Positions 20,135-28,888 of a stretch of 64,000 bases of DNA are shown piece by piece. A program made the position numbers and the translations under genes. The notes beneath the pieces are model-generated. The model worked only from the letters and a program-made list of their open reading frames with translations. It had not been told where the DNA came from and did no database searches. Source of the DNA: Candidatus Multivoradales bacterium (lineage in GTDB: Bacteria; Acidobacteriota; Thermoanaerobaculia; Multivoradales; JAHEKO01); the NCBI GenBank assembly GCA_965248055.1, contig CBDFIJ010000004.1, forward strand, positions 1,120,001 through 1,184,000. The letters are read 5' to 3'. Position 1 is the first letter of the stretch. The number at the start of each line of letters is the position of its first letter.

Positions 20135-20247
20135 GGCATTGATCCTTAGTTGCTACCGCCTAACGTCTCGCGATTTCTGCCGTGCCGCCACTCTGCAGGT
20201 TGGGCCTGCCCTCAAAAGAGGCACCCGAACGTGATCAGAGCTCCCTA

Positions 20248-20900
20248 AAAGTGCCAGCCGAATATTAGCAAGAACGCAGCAACGATTCTCGTCCCTCTCA
20301 CCATGAGCAGGAGACTTCGATTCATACCGCCCGGAGGCGCCTTGGTGGAGGTCACATGCCGTACCATCCAAGGTCGCTTTCTTCTCAAGCCCTCACCCCT
20401 AGCCAACGACATCATTCGAGGTGTCCTAGGGCGAGCACAGAGGAAGTATCCGGTGGAAATCCACGCGTTTGTCTTTATGTCCAATCACTACCACCTGTTG
20501 ATCTCGGTAGCTGATTCCGAGATATAACCGAAAGTTGTGTATGAGAGTTTGAAGGCGGCGTATCCTGAGCCCGGTTTTCAAAGCTGGGTTCAATCATCCC
20601 AAAAGGAGGATACGCCGTTGAGCAAGAGTAACGTAGTTTCAATCGCCGCCAAGGCCATTTGTTCCCGTATTGCAACGGCTCCGTCCAGATTGACTTTCCA
20701 CTTCCATCCCAGAAATGAAACATAGCCGCGCCCCAACATCGGAAAACAAGAAAAATCCAGCAGAAAGAACGCGACCTAACCCCACTTGGCCTGCGATTCA
20801 ACCTGGAGAACGACGCGATCTCGCTCAAAAACACCAAACGAAAGTGTTGACATAGATCAAACGACGTCACGCACCATCCCCTCGAAACAAGGGTGGCACT
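20248..20900 (+). mobile_element. Internally deleted copy of the Y1 transposase element
   Basis: 20248-20521 is nearly identical to the start of the element at 22301; 20652-20900 is nearly identical to 23222-23470; the middle is replaced. Confidence 0.92.
20519..20645 (+). mobile_element. Probable left-end remnant of an IS256-family element
   Basis: GAGATATAACCGAAAGTTGTGTATG end-like sequence; inverted repeat CGGCGTATCCT/AGGATACGCCG covering SD AAGGAGG; TTG start giving MSKSNVVSI. Confidence 0.5.
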
Positions 20901-21027
20901 GGAATTGACGAGTTGACGAGTTGACAGTTGACGGCCCGCACCGTCTCCTCAAAAAGAGGGTGGTACCTATGTCCGCACCCATGTCCCCTATGCCCGAATT
21001 GCGCCAACGTCGCCGACCTACCGCCTC

Positions 21028-21725: not shown

Positions 21726-22190
21726 TCACCGGCGACACCCGAAACACCAAAGGCCCTTGGCTGCACCAACCAGAATACACCTTGCGGAAGGTTGCCGGCC
21801 CCCCAGCAGTTGAGTAGCGATGAAGGCCGCCAACGCGAAGAGTGGGGGAGCGGTTACGACACCTGGGAAATAGCTTCCTCGAAGAACAGCCATGGTGGGA
21901 TGAACGATTCCGTTTCCGAGTTCGATCAACACCCACGGCCACATCCAATTCGACGCTGATGGATGACCTGGTCGTACGCGGGCCAGATAGCACCAAGCTC
22001 CGAGGGCAATAAGAACACCGTTGAGAATCGCGAAACCCAACGCAAGGTCAGTGCTGACGAGGCCGCTCGCGAAGCGTGCAGGCGCGAACACTTCGTAGAG
22101 CTTGAAAACGTACTCCTCGATCGAATGAGCGCCCTGCGTGAGGACCAGAGCGAGGAAAGCGTTTCTAGTGCGCAGATCGATCGGACTCAC
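21726..22190 (-). CDS. HXXEE-domain membrane protein, probable first integron cassette
   Basis: AHSIEEY, NGIVH, YFPGVVTAP; GTG start 7 bp after GTTAGGC. Confidence 0.82.
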   Translation of the reverse strand: MSPIDLRTRNAFLALVLTQGAHSIEEYVFKLYEVFAPARFASGLVSTDLALGFAILNGVLIALGAWCYLARVRPGHPSASNWMWPWVLIELGNGIVHPTMAVLRGSYFPGVVTAPPLFALAAFIATQLLGGRQPSARCILVGAAKGLWCFGCRR

Positions 22191-22196
22191 GCAACC

Positions 22197-22260
22197 GCCT
22201 AACATCCAATGGACAGAAACATTGTTGTACAACACACCGATGAGCGTACTACGTTAATAA
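22197..22260 (-). other. Candidate integron attI site
   Basis: GTTAGGC (GTTRRRY) at 22203-22197 directly before a cassette-like gene, with no attC palindrome, and divergent from the intI remnant. Confidence 0.5.
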
Positions 22261-22300
22261 CAACGAGCGATCCTGGTGAACTTGCACGGATGGTCTCTAG

Positions 22301-23471
22301 AAAGTGCCAGCCAAATATTTGCAAGGACACAGCAACGATTCTCGTCCCTCTCACCATGAGCAGACGACTTCGATTCATCCCGCCCGGAGGCGCCTTGGTG
22401 GAGGTCACATGCCGTACCATCCAAGGTCGCTTTCTCCTCAAGCCTTCGCCCCTGGCCAACGACATCATTCGAGGTGTCCTAGGGCGAGCACAAAGGAAGT
22501 ATCCGGTGGAAATCCACGCGTTTGCCTTCATGTCCAATCACTACCACCTGTTGATCTCGGTGGCTGACTCCGAGCAAATGGCCAAGTTCATGAACCATCT
22601 CAACGGAAACTTGGCCCGCGAACTCGGCAGACTGCACAATTGGACGGACAAATTTTGGTCTAGGAGATACCAAGCCATCGTCATCAGTGAAGAACAAGCA
22701 GCGCAAGAAGAGCGAATGAAATACATACTCAGCCAGGGCGTCAAAGAAAGGCTGGTTGCCCATCCAGTTGATTGGCCTGGAGTTCAGAGCGTAGAGACGT
22801 TGCTGCGCCGCAAGTCGACCGTCGAAGGCCACTGGAGAGACAGGACCCGAGAGTTTCATGCTCGCGGGTTGGACAGTGGCTTGGTCTTTCGTACCAGGGA
22901 ACGAGTCTTCCTAACTCCCCTTCCCTGCTGGGCCGATCGCAATCCAAAGTGGATTGCTCAACGAATACAGGAGCTGATCCAGATTGTGCAACAGGACAAT
23001 CCGTTCATAGAGCGTTCAGAGATTCCCGACCTGGACCCTACATACCGACCGAGCAAGCTCAAGCGCCGACCAGCACCCATGTTTCACTGCGCCAGCAAGG
23101 CGATGCGCAGGATCCTCTATGAAGCCTACTCGTGGTTCGTCCTGGCATATCGTGAAGCCTGCGCTCGGTTGAAAGCTGGCAACCTCACCGCCGCCTTCCC
23201 TCCTGGGTCCTTCCCACCACCCAGGCCATTTGTGCCCGTATAGCAACGGCTCCGTCCAGATTGGCTTTCCACTTCCATCCCGGAAGTGAAACATAGCCGC
23301 GCCCCAACATCGAAAAACAAGAAAAATCCAGCAGAAAGAACGCGACCTACCCCACTTGGCCTGCGATTCAACCTAGAGAACGACGCGATCTCGCTCAAAA
23401 ACACCAAACGAAAGTGTTGACACACATCAAACGACGTCATGCACCGTCCCCTCGAAACAAGGGTGGTACCT
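22301..23471 (+). mobile_element. Y1 (IS200/IS605/RAYT-type) element, full-length copy
   Basis: Bounded by the left motif AAAGTGCCAGCC and the right hairpin plus GGGTGGTACCT; limits set by comparison with the second copy. Confidence 0.85.
22356..23243 (+). CDS. HUH Y1 tyrosine transposase (RAYT/IS200-like, 295 aa)
   Basis: MSRRLR start, FMSNHYHLL (HuH), FWSRRY, catalytic Tyr in MKYILSQGVK, DWPGVQS; C-terminal FPPGSFPP. Confidence 0.93.
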   Translation: MSRRLRFIPPGGALVEVTCRTIQGRFLLKPSPLANDIIRGVLGRAQRKYPVEIHAFAFMSNHYHLLISVADSEQMAKFMNHLNGNLARELGRLHNWTDKFWSRRYQAIVISEEQAAQEERMKYILSQGVKERLVAHPVDWPGVQSVETLLRRKSTVEGHWRDRTREFHARGLDSGLVFRTRERVFLTPLPCWADRNPKWIAQRIQELIQIVQQDNPFIERSEIPDLDPTYRPSKLKRRPAPMFHCASKAMRRILYEAYSWFVLAYREACARLKAGNLTAAFPPGSFPPPRPFVPV

Positions 23472-23492
23472 AGCGGCGCCCGTGCCCGTATA

Positions 23493-23576
23493 GCCCGGTT
23501 ACGCCACATGAGTCCGCGCACCGAGGACTCGTACTTGGGTTGGGTCAAGAGATAAATCAGGTTTCATGATCTGAAG
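23493..23576 (+). pseudogene. intI: Integron integrase N-terminal remnant
   Basis: Manual translation ARLRHMSPRTEDSYLGWVKR*IRFHDLK matches the IntI N-terminal signature (cf. IntI1 [25 protein letters not shown]); internal TAA at 23553. Confidence 0.8.
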
Positions 23577-23613
23577 TTCAAAAAAAAGAAAAAAGAGGGT
23601 GGTACCTATGTCC

Positions 23614-23785
23614 TCGTCCATCAAACTTCGGATCCGCCGCAACGGATGAGACCGAGGAATTCGCCGTTCCAGGTCAACGTAGCTGAACATTGATCCCTCA
23701 CCTTGATCCGATCCACGCATCAAAACCTCCTATTCCCAATTATAGAATCGTTATGGTCAGGTGGTGGGGTTTTTCAGCAAGCTCT
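23614..23785 (-). mobile_element. IS5-family remnant (left end plus first ~36 codons)
   Basis: End AGAGCTTGCTGAAAAACCC; SD AGGAGG; MRGSDQGEGSMFSYVDLERRIPRSHPLRRIR; cut off at the Y1 right motif. Confidence 0.85.
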
Positions 23786-24080
23786 TAGAGGTTGGATTTA
23801 CGATCTTACCGATCATTTCGAAGTACGAGAAGACAATCGCGATGAGCCCATAGGCAGCATGACACCAAATGTCTTGCTTCCCCTCCCGATCATCCTCCAT
23901 CTCCTTTAGCACCTGCACGGCAACACCAAGCTGCCAGACTTCCACTCTACATTCGAAGATTTCGATCTTGTCCGTGAGAGTCCACGGCTTCTGCTTTTGT
24001 TGAATGAACTGCATTGGTGGCAAGAACACATCCCCGGAGTTGAAGTCCAGGAACTTACTGCTACGGAACACCCCGTTCAT
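23786..24080 (-). pseudogene. Hypothetical gene fragment interrupted by the IS5 remnant
   Basis: Protein-like ORF (DKIEIFECRVEVWQL...SYFEMIGK) whose 3' end reads into the IS end. Confidence 0.6.
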
Positions 24081-24189
24081 ACGTTACCCACTACGAATCT
24101 CCTTTCTCCTTGATAAAGGCCTGACTGACCACGCCAGCGAACATCTCTCCTCGAAAAAGAGGGTTCTATGAGTCGGGCGGTCCAGTCAA

Positions 24190-24441
24190 GGGTTTTCTTT
24201 CCATCGATCATGCGTTCTTTAGATTCGGATCTAACCTCAGGACGAGCTTCTATTCGCACTCTCTTGGGTCCGTCTTTGGACCGGTGCATGGTGAGTTTTC
24301 CGTCTGTTGAGGAAATTCGATGCTCCCATCTGGCACGCGGAGTCCCAGCCTCCAACCCATTTATCGGAGTCATCGAAACTTTTCATCCGTCCTTTGAAAC
24401 TCATGACTGATTTCTCTTGCTTTCTTACTTCGAATCCTCGC
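24190..24441 (-). ncRNA. Candidate IS110 bridge/seekRNA (downstream non-coding region)
   Basis: About 250-nt non-coding region 3' of the transposase with hairpins (GGTCC-N5-GGACC) and short matches to the IS end (AUAGAA) and to the target motif (GUGCCA). Position is typical of the IS1111 group. Confidence 0.55.
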
Positions 24442-25455
24442 TTATGTGGCTTGTGGAAACGGCTGGAAATTCTCGTTTGTGACCCACAACCTATGCAGTA
24501 GGACTCCGATCTTTCTAGCCAGCGCTACCACTGCTTTGCTCTTACCTAGCCTTGCCACCAAACCCTCACCCCAGCGCTTGAGCGCTGAGTCCTTGTGACA
24601 CTGTAAAGATGCATGCGCAGCCTGGACCAGGAGTCGGCGCATCTCGCTATCCCCCTCCCGAGTGATCCGGCCACGGATCTCATGCCCTCCTGAGCTGCGA
24701 AGCGAGGGCCTCAAGCCCAGGCATGCTCCAACATCTCGACTCTTTTGAAACCGATCTGGATTGTCTACCCAGCCGGCAAAAGCCAAGCTCACCAGAGGCC
24801 CTACCCCGGGCACTGTCTGCAGACGAACGAGAAGCTCATCGGTACTTGCTTGAGCTTTCAGGTCATTCTCTAGCTCACAGATCCGATCCGACAGCTCACC
24901 GATCGTCGATACCAAGGGAGCCAGGGCCTCTGATACTCCCGAATCGAATCCCATCGATTCGTAACGCACCATGAAAATCTTGGCCGCACACGAAGGCATC
25001 CGGTAGCCCTGAGCACGCAGAGTCCCACGTACCGCGTTGATCAACGAAGTCCGAGACTTAACCAGAGCCGATCGCACCCGTAAACGAGTGCGAAGCTCCT
25101 GGGCCTCAGGGCTTCGCTGATACACCGGACGCAGAAACCCCAGGTCTAATCGGCTCAGCCGAGCTAAAACCTCGGCATCAATGCCGTCGGTCTTTAGTGT
25201 CGATTCGGCAATCAAACGCACTCGCCGGGGATTGACTACCGTTACCGCATGACCTAGATCACACAGCAACCGATATACCCACGGCGTCACCGGACCGCTC
25301 TCCAGCGTCACTTGTGCACGCTCACGAGAACCGAAGAACCCACGGATCGACGTCTCCGTCGTCGAAATCCGACGACGAACCGTCACCTCACCCTCCTGAG
25401 ATATCCCACATACCTCGCTGTACTTTGAGTGAACGTCAATGCCAAGATACTCCAT
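24442..25455 (-). CDS. IS110-family transposase/recombinase (337 aa)
   Basis: YLGIDVH, LES, KTDGIDA (DEDD RuvC), VPGVG, GLRPSLRSSG (catalytic Ser), VALARK; SD AAGGAG before ATG 25455. Confidence 0.96.
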   Translation of the reverse strand: MEYLGIDVHSKYSEVCGISQEGEVTVRRRISTTETSIRGFFGSRERAQVTLESGPVTPWVYRLLCDLGHAVTVVNPRRVRLIAESTLKTDGIDAEVLARLSRLDLGFLRPVYQRSPEAQELRTRLRVRSALVKSRTSLINAVRGTLRAQGYRMPSCAAKIFMVRYESMGFDSGVSEALAPLVSTIGELSDRICELENDLKAQASTDELLVRLQTVPGVGPLVSLAFAGWVDNPDRFQKSRDVGACLGLRPSLRSSGGHEIRGRITREGDSEMRRLLVQAAHASLQCHKDSALKRWGEGLVARLGKSKAVVALARKIGVLLHRLWVTNENFQPFPQAT

Positions 25456-25678
25456 GGTCGGTCTCCTTTCTCGGCTAGATGCCGATTTCTTTGGTTGATC
25501 CAAACTGGCACATTGTCCCAGCTTGGAGACCGACCGACTCATCTCATCTGGCACCTCTGTCTGCGTCAATATGGGGCACGATACTGCCTGGGGTACCGAG
25601 GACTGATAACTCGACTGCCTAGATCCTGATGAGTGGCTGGAGCGTTATCGACTCCTACTTAATGAGACCCAAAAACTA

Positions 25679-25891
25679 GCGCTGCCTTTCTTTGATCACT
25701 CAATACCGGGACGCCCCCACCCGGAAAGAAAAGATGTACCCCTTGACATAACACCGCCTAATAAGTGGCACCTATGTCTGTTCTTTTGGCGCTGCCTTTC
25801 TTTGATCACTCAATACCGGGACGCCCCCCACCCGGAAAGAAAAGATGTACCCCTTGACATAACCCCGCCTAATAAGTGGCACCTATGTCTG
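25679..25891 (+). repeat. Tandem direct repeat, 2 x ~102 bp (period 110)
   Basis: GCGCTGCCTTTC...CCTTGACATAAC...GTGGCACCTATGTCTG at 25679-780 and 25789-891. Confidence 0.95.
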
Positions 25892-25896
25892 GGAAC

Positions 25897-27318
25897 CTAG
25901 CTGGCTCGTTGATGCGAAAACACGGAGAACGTCGTGACATTTCTTTCTTTGCCTTTTAGAACCTCATACGTCTGCAAGCCGAAGAATACTGCTGCACTTT
26001 GGGTAGTGATGGCCGCGACCGAGCGATCCTGAGAGGCGATCCAGGCTGCGTGGTAATTTGATTGAGGGGGTTCTGGTATTCGGGGGAGTACTCGCGCCCG
26101 CTTCTTCATGTAGTCATACACTTGCAGGTATGCGGAATCGACAGCTGCGACTTGCGACGGCCTCTCTCTCGGTGACGCACCGGCAAGAACAAACGACACG
26201 TCAAGCCTGATACTGCCACTTTGTATATAGTGATCTTTAAGCTTTTCAACAGCGCCAGAGGTCATTGTAGGCGGAGTGACTTCGTCTATCCGCGTATTCT
26301 CTACGGGTATGCAGATATGCTCTAGTGTGCCGCCCTCAAACAAGTGCATTGCCTTGTCAAGGCGTTCGAACGGTACAACCACGGGGGGGCGGTCGCGATT
26401 GCGCCTATCAGCACAATAGCGCTGAGCAGCCTCAAACGTAAAAGTGAACGGCATCAATGAACCCACAAATTCAAACCCTCGAATAGGGAGCCTTGAAACA
26501 TCAAGACCATCCAAGAACTTGATAACGTCAAGCGCGAGCTTCCAATGGAAGTTCACTGCATATTTTCTGGGGTCCATGGTGGTCAGCAGTTCCTCTATTA
26601 GATCCACGATCTCTCGATGAGATAGGGCCGGCCCCTGACGCAACAAATGTTGGCGAAAGACGGACAAGCATTCGACCACGTCCGCATGTGGACCAATCGT
26701 GAACAATGAGTTCGCGCGACGGGCGACCCCTCGCTCTTTTGATGAGTAGTGTCGATTGGTGCGATGTAAATAGGTTTCATCTACGATCTGTAGTTGCAAG
26801 GTCAGGCCCTGGCTCTGTTGTACGCGTACCGGGTGCAAAGCAACTCGTCCGCGATATAACGGTAGCGCGGCGAATCGTTCCAGCAGCAGTAGCCAAACGA
26901 GACCATTTTCGGGTAGTTCTGCATCTAAGATGAGGATTCTGGTGTAATCGACACCACGGAGTATCGCCTCCGCCACTGCAGAGACATACTCGCGTGTACG
27001 CTGATCCACCCATTGCGACCCTCGGCCAATCACTTCGATGCGACACTCGGCCTTGCGATCTATGATGGCTGAGATCAGAGCTAGCCCTGCGGCGTCATCA
27101 TCGGTCCTAGCCACTCGATGAGCAGTGTCGAAGAGCGATGAGAGACGTTCAGCAAGTAGTTCGTTGACCAAGCGCCGTGCGGCGCCCTGTACTCTGCGTC
27201 GCCTATGCCTCGCAACTGCAACCCCAAAAACAGCGAGTACGGCCGCAGCAACTAAACCCCCTATCGCTTCAGGCAGCGAGTCGGTCAATACATCTGTGAA
27301 GTCAGCAAACACCACCAT
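25897..27318 (-). CDS. Membrane-anchored protein with unknown middle domain and degenerate prephenate-dehydratase-like C-terminal domain
   Basis: N-terminal TM followed by an Arg cluster; ICIPVENT and AAITTQSAAVFFGL...NVTTFSVF resemble PDT VPIENS and AAIAS..AA..YGL..N.TRF. Confidence 0.7.
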   Translation of the reverse strand: MVVFADFTDVLTDSLPEAIGGLVAAAVLAVFGVAVARHRRRRVQGAARRLVNELLAERLSSLFDTAHRVARTDDDAAGLALISAIIDRKAECRIEVIGRGSQWVDQRTREYVSAVAEAILRGVDYTRILILDAELPENGLVWLLLLERFAALPLYRGRVALHPVRVQQSQGLTLQLQIVDETYLHRTNRHYSSKERGVARRANSLFTIGPHADVVECLSVFRQHLLRQGPALSHREIVDLIEELLTTMDPRKYAVNFHWKLALDVIKFLDGLDVSRLPIRGFEFVGSLMPFTFTFEAAQRYCADRRNRDRPPVVVPFERLDKAMHLFEGGTLEHICIPVENTRIDEVTPPTMTSGAVEKLKDHYIQSGSIRLDVSFVLAGASPRERPSQVAAVDSAYLQVYDYMKKRARVLPRIPEPPQSNYHAAWIASQDRSVAAITTQSAAVFFGLQTYEVLKGKERNVTTFSVFSHQRAS

Positions 27319-27631
27319 CGACCACCAGTTCTACACACGATTGATCAGATGACAGTAACACACCACGCGTTTTGGGCAACGACACGCCAAACGACATTAC
27401 TGCCTCGATCAGTGTTTCACTTTTCGAATGCACCACTACAGAGCACTCATGCGTGGGCTGGATCAAGTCGTCCATCAAAACCCCGATCTGAAGCGCGCTT
27501 TCGACCGCGATCAGGCACTAGTGATCTGCACACTGTTTCCGCTTCGACCAAAGATCATTTCCGTGCATATGAGGTCCACCAAATCAAACAAGTAAGTTCC
27601 AATCCCCCCCAATCCATGCTCAACTAGGCTC

Positions 27632-28888
27632 ATGACCGAATGGATGGAGTTCTGGCCGGCGTTCTTGATCGCATCCGCCATTGGCTTGGTGATCGGTCTG
27701 TTGATCGGGCTAATGATGGGCCAAGCTCGAACTCGCAAACTGGAGATTGAGCGCGCCAAGGAGGCAACTCGCTCCGAAGAAAGGCTGCGGGGCCAGGTTG
27801 ATCTGGCGGAGCAACAAGAGGCGGTGTTTCGCGCCGCTGCGTCGGAGGCGCTGCAAGCCAATAACGATCAATTCCTCAAACTCGCTGAGCAACGATTGAC
27901 CCAAGCCCGCTCGGAGGCGACTTCCGATTTGGAAGCGCGCAAGGTGGCGATCACGCATCTAGTAAAGCCGATGAAAGAAACCTTGGACCGGCTCACCGCC
28001 CAAACGGTGGACCTGGAGCGCCAGCGATCGAAGGCCTACGGCAAATTGGAGCAACACCTTGGCCTGCTGGTCACCCAGACCCAAGATTTGAGCCAGAACA
28101 CAGCGTCGTTATCGACTGCGCTGCGCGGATCGACCGCCGGGGGCCGGTGGGGTGAGATTGCGCTGCGCAATTTGGTGGAGATAGCGGGGATGAATGAGCA
28201 CGTCGACTTTCAGGATCAAGGCAGTCTCCCAGGGGGTGGACGTCCTGACCTGACCATCACGCTGCCGGGCAACCGCTTTATTGCGGTGGACGCCAAGGCG
28301 CCGACGTCCGCCTATTTGGACATTCTCGAAACCGAGGACGCCGACACGGCTAAGCAACGCAGGGCCTCACTGGCTAAGGTGATTCGCGGCCACGTACAGC
28401 AGTTGTCCAGTCGGGAGTACGCCGACCAACTGGAAGGCGACGTCGATTACGTGGTGCTGTTCTTGCCCGCCGACGCAATCCTCGCGGAGGCCTTCAAAGC
28501 GGACCGTGATCTACAGCTAGACGCGTTTCGCAAGCGGGTTTTGGTGGCAACACCGACGATACTGGTGGCCTTGCTACGCACCGTGGCTTTTGACTGGCAA
28601 CGCAATGCGCTAGAGACCAACGCTCACGCAATTGGCGAGCTAGCGGAGACCTTGATCGATCGAGTGTCGCTTTTTGCTCAGAACTTGGGAGAGCTTGGTT
28701 CCAGCCTTGATCGAGCTGTGGGTTCGTACAATCGCGCAGCCAATTCTTTCCGCATGCGGATACGCCCGCTAAAACAAAAACTGGCGGATTTATCGGGGGG
28801 CGAAGGTGCCGAGCGCAAAGATCCAGAGCAGATCACCCAGCGAGTGACCGACCCAGATGTTGGGATCGATGATCGGAGTTCGAACTAG
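27632..28888 (+). CDS. rmuC: DNA recombination protein RmuC
   Basis: N-terminal TM, coiled coil, GRWGEIAL, RPD, VDAKAP, VATPTILVALLRTV. Confidence 0.95.
   Translation: MTEWMEFWPAFLIASAIGLVIGLLIGLMMGQARTRKLEIERAKEATRSEERLRGQVDLAEQQEAVFRAAASEALQANNDQFLKLAEQRLTQARSEATSDLEARKVAITHLVKPMKETLDRLTAQTVDLERQRSKAYGKLEQHLGLLVTQTQDLSQNTASLSTALRGSTAGGRWGEIALRNLVEIAGMNEHVDFQDQGSLPGGGRPDLTITLPGNRFIAVDAKAPTSAYLDILETEDADTAKQRRASLAKVIRGHVQQLSSREYADQLEGDVDYVVLFLPADAILAEAFKADRDLQLDAFRKRVLVATPTILVALLRTVAFDWQRNALETNAHAIGELAETLIDRVSLFAQNLGELGSSLDRAVGSYNRAANSFRMRIRPLKQKLADLSGGEGAERKDPEQITQRVTDPDVGIDDRSSN

Follow-up and report, generated by a model that had tools for sequence, protein, structure and literature searches.

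An IS1111-subgroup insertion sequence with a single putative bridge RNA gene occupies the end motif of a RAYT-like Y1 element in an acidobacterial genome

In a 64,000-nt stretch of a Candidatus Multivoradales bacterium genome (contig CBDFIJ010000004.1, positions 1,120,001 to 1,184,000; hereafter the window), an IS110-family transposase gene interrupts the end motif of a Y1 element. The initial annotation of this locus placed an element at 24164-25662, read it as RNA-guided and programmed against the ends of another element, and suggested that it might carry two guide RNAs. This raises the question of where the element stops, what it recognizes and how many guide RNAs it encodes. We find that positions 24164-25549 (minus strand) are an intact insertion sequence (IS) of the IS1111 subgroup of the IS110 family, about 1385 bp in length. 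It is an otherwise ordinary, well-preserved RNA-guided IS with a single guide RNA gene behind the transposase gene, not two, and its target is the terminal motif that a RAYT-like family of Y1 elements carries at either end. To this reading as a whole (IS1111-type IS, one bridge RNA, Y1-end target) we assign a probability of about 0.85. What we observe directly is how the element is built and where it ends, that stems and guides covary, and that empty sites exist; that it is transcribed, that its RNA is processed and bound by the protein, that the circle junction carries a promoter and that the element is active today are inferences.

Four copies in this genome and some 26 relatives set the ends of the element at 24164 and 25549. 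The left one had been placed correctly and agrees with both sets. The right boundary had been placed at 25662, but the match to genomic copies B, C and D and to 15 copies in a related MAG breaks off at 25554-25555, and 25572-25775 is a separate repeat with three further copies in the genome. The last six matched bases, GTGCCA (25549-25554, minus strand), are target sequence, as judged from uninterrupted paralogous sites; these empty sites rule out GTGCCA as element sequence, 25550-25554 are assigned to the target, and the element proper is therefore 24164-25549. Because one T is common to both junctions, the extent is either 24164-25548 or 24165-25549. The empty counterpart of the window copy lies at 20944-20975, with a single GT(G/A)CCA directly against the right half, and that of copy C is a Y1 left end near C4:1397700 (CCCCTAAGTGCCAGCTGATTATTTGCAAGG, versus the occupied CCCCTAAGTGCCA-IS-GCCGATTACTTGCAAGG). 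Apart from the one ambiguous T/A, no target duplication is seen at the empty paralogous sites. Taking out the element with these boundaries rejoins TCTCCTCGAAAAAGAGGG(T)GGCACCTCTGTCTG, a join that is closer to the motif at 20944 than the one first drawn. An IS621-like 2-nt core was considered and rejected, as no dinucleotide is common to both junctions here, in L014 or in L043, but only a single A. Copy D (24295-25554) was likewise rejected as an independent short form, its left flank being the terminus of another multi-copy IS, a 57-bp sequence present at least 11 times. A Logan unitig covering 24164-25554 has a depth of about 4x. Among sequencing runs, the stretch was found in four DNA runs of one sample and in no RNA run; the contigs of the DNA runs have unitig breaks at the repeat boundaries, and neither an empty-site joint nor a circle joint was found in them, a result with no bearing on activity.

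The transposase gene (24442-25455, minus strand; 337 aa plus stop) is 100% identical and stop-free in all four genomic copies. Its product exceeds the cut-offs of PF01548 (DEDD_Tnp_IS110, N-terminal; 79.2 bits) and PF02371 (Transposase_20, C-terminal; 71.1 bits) and scores 236.9 bits with NF033542 (cut-off 140). Similarity to IS621 is weak (E = 2.4e-10). In the DEDD and SG alignment with IS621 chain 8wt6_A, GID, ES, KTDgiDA and SSGG are placed opposite GID, EA, KTDtvDA and ESGS, the roles of the catalytic residues in IS621 being taken from PMC11208158. Identity does not exceed 36.7% to any plasmid-borne relative and is 28.6% to IS4321/IS5075. The translation contains GLRPSLRSSG, which fits the GL-P----S(t)G motif, and its 337 aa fall within the 330-350 aa that, together with this motif, characterize IS1111 transposases (PMC11187229). 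Subterminal inverted repeats are found on the left (ATGAGTCGGTCGGTC; 25528-25542, minus strand) and on the right (ATGAGTCGGGCGGTC; 24168-24182, plus strand), with 14 of 15 bases matching on inversion, and their length of 15 nt is inside the 7-17 bp range given for IS1111 (PMC11208160). The left repeat is preceded by a 7-nt extension, AGATGAG (25543-25549, minus strand), and such a 7-bp left extension without target duplication has been described for IS1111 members (PMC11187229). As in IS1111, non-coding sequence is longer on the downstream side of the gene: 278 nt after the stop codon (281 nt with the stop) versus 94 nt upstream, the latter having been overestimated at about 205 bp. An outward-facing -35 box, TTGACT (24184-24189, minus strand), is located 20 nt from the right end, and 17 of the 20 aligned relatives have a TTGA(C/T) core in the equivalent region (L042 has TTGCAA; L052 and L061 are without it). 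A junction promoter, which we infer from ISEc11, would not take the form TTGACT-N15-TAGAAT suggested previously, as the circle junction expected from the corrected ends gives TTGACT-N15-TAGAAG, or N17-GAAGAT.

The right target half, TCTCCTCGAAAAAGAGGG, is a hairpin of the Y1 end motif (24146-24163, plus strand), and the left target half, GGCAC followed by CTCTGTCTGCG (25550-25565, plus strand), forms the outer part of this motif. The left half aligns with TGGTACCTATGTCCG at 20961-20975 and with the flank of copy B; TCTCCTCAAAAAGAGGGTGGTACCT was found once, at 20944-20968. The basic Y1 (RAYT-like) element, with left end GAAAGTGCCAGCC, covers 22300-23472 (plus strand), as delimited from the copy B block and from a derivative at 20243-20899. 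Its gene runs from an ATG near 22356 to a stop at 23243, and the first right-end motif occupies 23450-23472. Reverse-complementing the right end, AGGTGCCACCC, gives a match to the left end, AAGTGCCAGCC, so that the gene is flanked by an inverted repeat. The encoded protein is recognized by PF01797 (45.3 bits, sufficient for that model) and stays below the cut-offs of the NCBIfam models REP_Tyr_transpos (57.7 bits; cut-off 80) and IS200 (28.8 bits; cut-off 55). In the genome, the Y1 family accounts for 16 tblastn matches, about 10 of them near full length, with 57-67% identity.

We propose that the preferred target is the approximately 11-bp terminal motif A(A/G)GT(G/A)CCA(C/G)CC, inverted at both Y1 ends. 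The window copy occupies a right-end motif and copy C the left-end motif of a different Y1 copy, and two relatives in other genomes flank Y1 genes (L035 and L038, the only such cases among the loci from L014 up, those of the own genome apart). With independent copies in related sites, the earlier view that another element's terminal motif is targeted is borne out. In G036, no Y1 gene was found within 1.5 kb of its 15 copies. The 10-nt motif occurs 114 times, versus about 83 expected, its extended form in a few dozen places only, and recognizable Y1-motif sites number roughly 25-30. The motif as a high-copy REP is ruled out by this low copy number, the pattern of a single gene with hundreds of REPs being absent.

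The 3' non-coding region appears to encode one putative bridge/seekRNA. The predicted gene, of about 135 nt (24233-24377, minus strand; 115.7 bits), is the sole match of RNA model R1 in the 64-kb window, and R1 also matches 26 of 26 relative loci. In the stems, 96.3% of cells are paired, compared with 81.2% in shuffles (0 of 500 reach the observed value) and 27-46% with slid partners; compensatory changes are present in 8 of 17 pairs, and the covariation score is 0.388 versus 0.119. The 3' strand of the basal stem P1 (24318-24326, minus strand) pairs with 24366-24375, and four of its nine pairs have both sides changed. The apical hairpin of the target-binding loop, GGAG-GCUGGGA-CUCC (24339-24353, minus strand), has a compensatory GGUG..CACC in L014, and its loop sequence differs among relatives. 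The single-sequence fold is only mildly better than that of shuffles (z = -1.84; 8 of 200 shuffles equally stable), and an Rfam E-value scan of window positions 22000-28000 returned no matches.

Two guide strands can be read in this RNA. The T-guide, AUAAAUGGGU (24355-24364, minus strand), is complementary to the top strand of the right target half (A followed by CCC...). Across 19 distinct T-guides, the mean longest match to the own right flank is 5.26 versus 3.03 in 342 cross pairs, a figure in which L055 was entered with a misplaced anchor (by eye, its guide AGGGACCTGT matches flank GGGACCTCGC over 7 nt). None of 10,000 permutations reaches the observed match, although the relatives share kinship and the permutation figures overstate their independence. 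A contiguous match of at least 7 nt is present in 9 of the 19 guides, and 6 of the 19 match their own flank at chance level (longest match 2-3). Pattern-based guide extraction left out 6 of 29 loci; the RNA model had a match in each of the 26 loci searched with it. The B-guide, GUGCCA followed by GAUG (24327-24336, minus strand), reads like the left target half, in the same orientation, and continues into the element's first bases. Where the left flank differs, the guide differs with it: relatives carry GUGACA, CGUAGA, GUGUA and GAUGACGA, and among eight distinct guides the corresponding values are 4.75 versus 2.64 (0 of 10,000 permutations). The earlier reading of the 3' GUGCCA as a guide matching the core of the target motif is supported. 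In the target, the T match precedes the B match on the 5' side and overlaps it, an order described for IS1111 seekRNAs (PMC11187229). The fit of the element's own T-guide is only moderate, at 7 of 10 positions for the window copy and 6 of 10 for copy C, with a contiguous match of 3 nt beyond the shared base, and a genome search returned no site within one mismatch of the 15-nt ideal target.

The donor loop can be read in the same way. Its 5' strand, CUCACC (24290-24295, minus strand), is complementary to the left-end GATGAG, and its 3' strand, AUAGAAG (24247-24253, minus strand), reads in sense as the right end ATAGAA followed by G. CUCA accompanies GATGAG, and CCCA or CCCC accompanies GATGGG, in every relative for which both are known, without a discordant case, a wrong stretch having been entered for L043 in this comparison. 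In 20 of 20 aligned relatives, the donor strand and the right end, CAT(A/G)GAA, have the same base at the A/G position. The ATAGAA at 24248-24253 (minus strand), originally noted as a match to the IS terminus, is present and is part of this donor-matching strand. The initial reading as an RNA-guided element of the IS110 family is supported.

Could the short matches among non-coding ends, termini and motif be coincidental, or do they reveal two guide RNAs, one per non-coding end of an element spanning 24164-25662 and each carrying GUGCCA? Single matches measure 6-10 nt, and GTGCCAGATG, present in the window exactly twice as reported (24327-24336 and 25545-25554, minus strand), reaches that number in 1 of 100 shuffles, with 0.20 expected. 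Across relatives, however, the same positions vary in step with flanks and ends, and the stems covary, which leaves chance with a negligible probability. The case for two guides starts from GCTGGGAC-N3-5-GTGCCAG, which does occur in both regions (24330-24349 and 25505-25522, minus strand) and is reached in 0 of 100 shuffles; moreover, 26 of about 350 IS listed in PMC11187229 have two long non-coding regions. However, the copies and relatives all end at 25554-25555, with the independent repeat 25572-25775 lying outside, and R1 has no second match in the window. The upstream region holds a structured 5' leader (25456-25535, minus strand; MFE -41.6 kcal/mol), in which an 11-bp stem (25525-25535/25456-25466) over the ribosome-binding site encloses a hairpin at 25505-25522; in L036, the leader shows a compensatory change from UCUCC/GGAGA to UUUCC/GGAAA. 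The 5' GCTGGGAC..GTGCCAG forms the two arms of this single conserved hairpin, GCUGG.AC pairing with GU.CCAG. Furthermore, its GTGCCAG is unchanged in L014 and L036, where the target half is GTGACA, and is present in L042, where that half is GGTAGA. A second guide RNA is thus unsupported, since the 5' motif consists of hairpin arms and fails to follow the target. As for GCUGGGA on the 3' side, it forms a hairpin loop that varies in sequence and is two bases off the GCCAGGA of close relatives, and for this reason the 8-mer identity of the two regions weighs little. It had been held against the guide reading that GUGCCA segments might fall in stems; this applies to the 5' copy only. Altogether, we consider two guides very improbable and retain one bridge RNA.

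A different reading takes the internal GTGCCAGATGG mainly as a DNA-level pseudo left end, comparable to the A' box of ISPpu9, that would bound a 3' module able to move separately. At C4:2181140-2181311 and C4:2189021-2189188 lie two elements, each about 175 bp long and diverged to about 82% identity, whose start coincides exactly with this motif and which continue towards the right end, and ISPpu9 circles have been described that contain either the transposase module or the small-RNA module, or the two together (PMC12288879). On the other hand, the motif lies in a conserved internal loop of all relatives and covaries with the left flank, among transposases that are 40-83% identical. The flanks of the first mini element (GTGACA / GGTTACTC) fit an L036-type guide and not that of the present element, and a deletion between 10-11-nt direct repeats of an older copy explains this mini element equally well. 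Solo RNA modules were not found in relatives: 17 of 17 matches in G036 adjoin a transposase gene, and G169, G173 and G115 have one match each. We therefore regard a mainly DNA-level role of the motif as unlikely and keep to its function as an RNA guide. The two readings are compatible with each other.

In the proposed mechanism, the DEDD/serine transposase would work with one bridge (seek) RNA derived from the 281-nt region downstream of its gene. The first loop, closed by the 9-bp covarying stem, would present the T-guide AUAAAUGGGU, complementary to the right half (ideal site A-CCCATTTAT), as well as GUGCCA in the sense of the left target half. In the second loop, CUCACC and AUAGAAG would match the left and right ends of the element as joined in the excised circle, with CTCATAGA-A-GATGAG as the predicted circle junction. 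The point of recombination would be the single A (T on the plus strand) between GTGCC and CCC, without target duplication. Two blocks of 3.26 kb, at window positions 22300-25554 and at C4:2107530-2104276, are 100% identical and extend from a Y1 left end to a Y1 end motif. Tentatively, and with a low probability, this element and the Y1 family may be a pair of nested parasites, with guides tuned to the end motif shared by both ends of a diversified Y1 family in at least three genomes. As the two identical blocks might suggest, the RNA-guided element could have been copied as cargo of a Y1-bounded unit, and the left-guide DNA might serve as a pseudo left end that gives rise to transposase-less mini elements.

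Among described systems, the nearest to the element include the IS1111 elements with a seekRNA (ISEc11, ISKpn4, ISPa11, ISPst6; PMC11187229), with which it shares the subterminal repeats, the 7-nt extension, the lack of duplication, the transposase size of 330-350 aa, the GL-P----SG motif, the long downstream non-coding region, the overlapping top-strand-first order and target-derived flanks on both sides. It differs from them in its distant transposase, its host among the Acidobacteriota, its target and an RNA similarity to IS5075 that is marginal. With IS621 (PMC11208160, PMC11208158) it has in common a DEDD and serine recombinase, one RNA with target and donor loops, and two guide strands per loop that surround a short core and run a few bases past it in the manner of handshake guides. 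IS621, however, encodes its RNA at the left end, uses CT as the core and has repeats of 2-3 bp, whereas here the RNA is encoded at the right end, only a single A is shared and the repeats measure 15 nt. ISPpu9, ISPpu10 and IS621 insert in REPs, and IS4321/IS5075 in the terminal repeats of the Tn21 family (PMC12288879). Site-specific entry into short repeated terminal or palindromic motifs is the same here, but the motif flanks multi-copy, diverged Y1 genes and is of low copy number, not hundreds. An RNA-guided element specialized on Y1 (RAYT-like) ends extends a known habit of the IS110 family, which includes REPs and transposon ends. A literature search returned no report of an IS1111-type element in Y1/RAYT ends; the supplementary tables of PMC11187229 and PMC11208160 may list a relative from this clade.

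As in ISPpu9 (PMC12288879), full and truncated copies coexist with solo 3' RNA modules that start with the left-end box. Here, by contrast, the solo modules are two old, diverged pieces in which half of the target loop is missing, and no equivalent of the B box was seen upstream of the internal motif. With this locus, the IS1111-type elements whose bridge RNA can be read clearly gain a clade from the Acidobacteriota. Its roughly 19 natural guide/target pairs, from transposases 40-83% identical, may serve as a comparative set for the guide rules of IS1111, the less studied branch. Such a set directly displays where the guides lie, the single-base overlap, and which bases extend past the core. 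Outside this clade, R1 has a weak match in the 3' region of IS5075 (14.5 bits; rough E = 0.0012), which sits at L064:1869-1998, 84 nt behind the IS5075 transposase gene.

A BLAST search of positions 24000-25900 against the genome returned three further copies of the element: copy B (C4:2104265-2105830, on the same contig, C4, of which positions 1120001-1184000 form the window; matching 24000-25565), copy C (matching 24161-25554) and copy D (C4:804837-806096; matching 24295-25554). In addition, 15 copies of one relative (79-81% amino-acid identity) in a single Thermoanaerobaculia-class MAG all align to 25555-24164. As the genomic and MAG copies stop there, the repeated unit is 24164-25554 and not 24164-25662; the right boundary at 25662 given in the initial annotation was therefore moved. 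In DNA runs, Logan unitigs end at both 24164 and 25554, where the depth is about 4x that of the flanks. Positions 25572-25775 belong to a different, ~200-bp repeat (25572-25891; three other copies), which ends in AAGTGGCACC and carries its last ~103 bp as a tandem pair (25679-25780 and 25789-25891). At 24294/24295, copy D is truncated by the terminus of a different multi-copy IS (C4:806097-806450), whose 57-bp terminus occurs at at least 11 places and the adjacent 296-bp segment at 13.

The empty paralogous site for the window copy (20944-20975) reads TCTCCTCAAAAAGAGGG-TGGTACCTATGTCCG and the occupied site TCTCCTCGAAAAAGAGGG-[IS]-(T)GGCACCTCTGTCTGCG. For copy C, the empty site is the left end of another Y1 copy, CCCCTAAGTGCCAGCTGATTATTTGCAAGGTTGGGAACC, and the occupied site is CCCCTAAGTGCCA-[IS]-GCCGATTACTTGCAAGGTTGGGAACC. 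In both pairs the empty and the occupied site each have a single GT(G/A)CCA, which in the latter stands only to the left of the element; it hence belongs to the target and not to the element. From these comparisons the element proper is read as 24164-25549 (~1385 bp), with one A/T common to both junctions and without duplication. Just outside the element, the left target half is tandemly duplicated in two cases, at copy D (GTGCCAGTGCCA, flank of C4:804837-806096) and in the upstream region of the relative locus L035 (GAAAAGGTGCCA twice).

The transposase gene (24442-25455, minus strand) encodes a 337-aa protein with both IS110-family Pfam domains, scoring 236.9 bits (cut-off 140) on NCBIfam NF033542, 'IS110 family RNA-guided transposase'. 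It is open and identical in all four genomic copies. Alignment to the solved IS621 recombinase, for which catalytic residue roles are reported (PMC11208158), shows that the D, E, D and D residues and the Ser-Gly pair are kept. With the left boundary after GTGCCA, the left end comprises a 7-nt extension, AGATGAG, and a 15-nt inverted repeat of the right end, identical at 14 of 15 positions. A long non-coding region lies downstream of the gene, and the protein carries the GL-P----SG motif. Left extension of 7 nt, subterminal repeats, long downstream non-coding region, GL-P----SG and transposase length are described as defining IS1111 (PMC11187229, PMC11208160). Judged by its extension, 15-nt repeat, downstream region, motif and 337-aa length, the element is assigned to the IS1111 subgroup, an already known kind of RNA-guided IS.

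The Y1 gene beside the element (22209-23243; Y1_Tnp domain by profile search) probably starts at an ATG near 22356. Its product scores best on the RAYT model, yet below the cut-off. With tblastn, the gene has 16 genomic matches, of which ~10 are nearly full-length (57-67% identity); so many matches are unusual for RAYT-like genes. Upstream of the start codon by ~50-56 bp, 8 of 11 inspected Y1 copies carry the motif A(A/G)GT(G/A/T)CCA(C/G)C(C/T) with GA(A/T)T or AAAT after it, and the right-end motifs are the reverse complement of this motif. Right-end motifs harbour the window copy and copy B, and a left end harbours copy C. Next to two solo right-end remnants (C4:683411-683542, C4:1487918-1488033) stand GCCGAATATTCG and CCCGCTTTTCTG. 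Relatives L035 and L038, in two other genomes, likewise lie next to Y1 genes. Since the genomic insertions fit the Y1 motif and these two relatives adjoin Y1 genes, the earlier proposal that the element is programmed against another element's ends holds. Reported parallels are IS110-family elements that insert into REPs, and IS4321/IS5075, which insert into Tn21-family ends (PMC12288879, PMC11208160). Diverged Y1 gene clusters are found among the same small repeats at C4:1380000-1399000 and C4:1481000-1488000. Downstream of L063, a locus in the related genome G036, a REPIN-like inverted pair (GGATACATATTTCGAG...CTTGAAATAGGTATCC, then TGTCA) has the target of the L014-type relative as one of its arms; no Y1 gene was found within 1.5 kb.

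Window 22300-25554 and C4:2107530-2104276 are 100% identical over 3.26 kb, from the Y1 left end to GGCAC, and copy B by itself is not an independent insertion event. Possibly the element was carried along when a Y1-bounded unit was copied; equally, two identical Y1 blocks may each have received the element at the same motif, the one that fits best. The remaining two motifs are GTACCA, one mismatch to the guide. The block contains the Y1 gene, three end motifs, a 177-bp repeat, a 107-aa ORF and the IS. The 177-bp repeat (23614-23790; 8 other copies, 93-99% identity) begins directly after an end motif (GAGGGTGGTACCTA). A Y1 element derivative (20243-20899) has a 127-bp repeat (20518-20645; at least 10 genomic copies, 94-100% identity) in place of its middle part.

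Of 201 genomes from the same order, 22 contain relatives of the element. The extracted downstream regions of these relatives align into a conserved block, in which RNAalifold predicts a basal stem of 9 bp and a distal stem in two parts. Trained on 20 sequences, a covariance model has one match in the window (24233-24377, minus strand, 115.7 bits) and matches 26 of 26 relative loci, each behind the transposase gene. Paired cells amount to 96.3% in the alignment of model matches vs 81.2% in shuffles (0/500) and 27-46% with slid partners, and both partners change in 8 of 17 pairs. Folded as a single sequence, the region is only modestly more stable than shuffles (z = -1.84). We read the block as encoding a predicted bridge/seekRNA, which would be made from the 3′ region.

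In the loop of the basal stem, the 5′ strand after GACU(C/G)CG (T-guide) is, in relatives, the reverse complement of each element's right-hand flank. Guide reverse complement and flank are CCCACTTAT and CCCACTTGT for L035, CCCTTTTCT and CCCTTTTCG for L057, GGATACTTT and GGATAC(C/T/A)TAT for the L014 group, GGGGTTAGT and GGGGTTAGG for L046, and GACAAGGCGC and GACAAGGCGG for L047. Over 19 distinct T-guides, the mean longest match to the own flank is 5.26, against 3.03 for 342 cross pairs (0/10,000 permutations); the match is no better than chance in 6 of the 19, and the window element's T-guide is among the weaker ones. The 3′ strand (B-guide) repeats the left flank (GUGCCA, GUGACA, CGUAGA, GUGUA or GAUGACGA) and then runs into GAUGG, resembling the element's first bases; for eight distinct B-guides, own matches average 4.75 vs 2.64 in cross pairs (0/10,000 permutations). 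The window guides lie at 24355-24364 and 24327-24336. Their order and overlap at the common A are as reported for IS1111 seekRNAs (PMC11187229). Both seem to extend 1-4 bases into the element's ends, resembling the IS621 handshake guides (PMC11208158), and this extension would fit the reported need for target-derived flanks in IS1111 excision (PMC11187229).

A second guide RNA had been suggested for the upstream end, on the basis of a GTGCCAG motif in a ~205-bp non-coding region. With the corrected boundary this region measures 94 nt, and the motif at 25505-25522 corresponds to the arms, GCUGG.AC and GU.CCAG(U), of a hairpin within a leader stem. GTGCCAG is the same in relatives with target half GTGACA or GGTAGA, which is not guide-like, and the suggestion was dropped. 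The 8-mer common to the 5′ and 3′ regions falls within a variable hairpin loop in the latter, two substitutions from the loop of close relatives. The 11-bp leader stem pairs the left repeat region (25525-25535) with GGAGACCGACC, immediately upstream of the start codon; it covers the ribosome-binding site and probably acts as a translational brake on the transposase gene. This long-range stem (25456-25535) is conserved in relatives with compensatory changes, one of them in L036.

The second loop of the predicted RNA carries putative donor strands. Its 3′ side is AU(A/G)GAAG, in which A/G agrees with the right end CAT(A/G)GAA in 20 of 20 aligned relatives; each state occurs in 10, and the close pair L041/L042 differ. 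The ATAGAA at 24248-24253, previously matched to the IS terminus, is confirmed as part of this strand. The 5′ side is CUCA(C/A)C with left end GATGAG, and CCCA.C or CCCCUC with GATGGG, with no discordant relative among those with both known. The distance from TTGACT to the right end is 20 nt, and 17 of 20 aligned relatives have a TTGA(C/T) core in this region. Of the junction TTGACT-N15-TAGAAT predicted earlier, TTGACT stands; the true ends when joined give TAGAAG at N15, or N17-GAAGAT, a weak -10 box. A junction promoter, known for ISEc11 (PMC11187229), may also form in the window element.

Two ~175-bp elements, C4:2181140-2181311 (plus strand) and C4:2189021-2189188 (minus strand), are ~82% identical to 24164-24336. 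Without transposase gene or T-guide, both have the left-target guide motif (GTGACAGATGG / GTGCCAGATGG) as their exact starting point and extend across the donor loop toward the right end. The flanks of the former fit an L036-type guide; the latter has a scrambled right end, which looks like an inverted left end.
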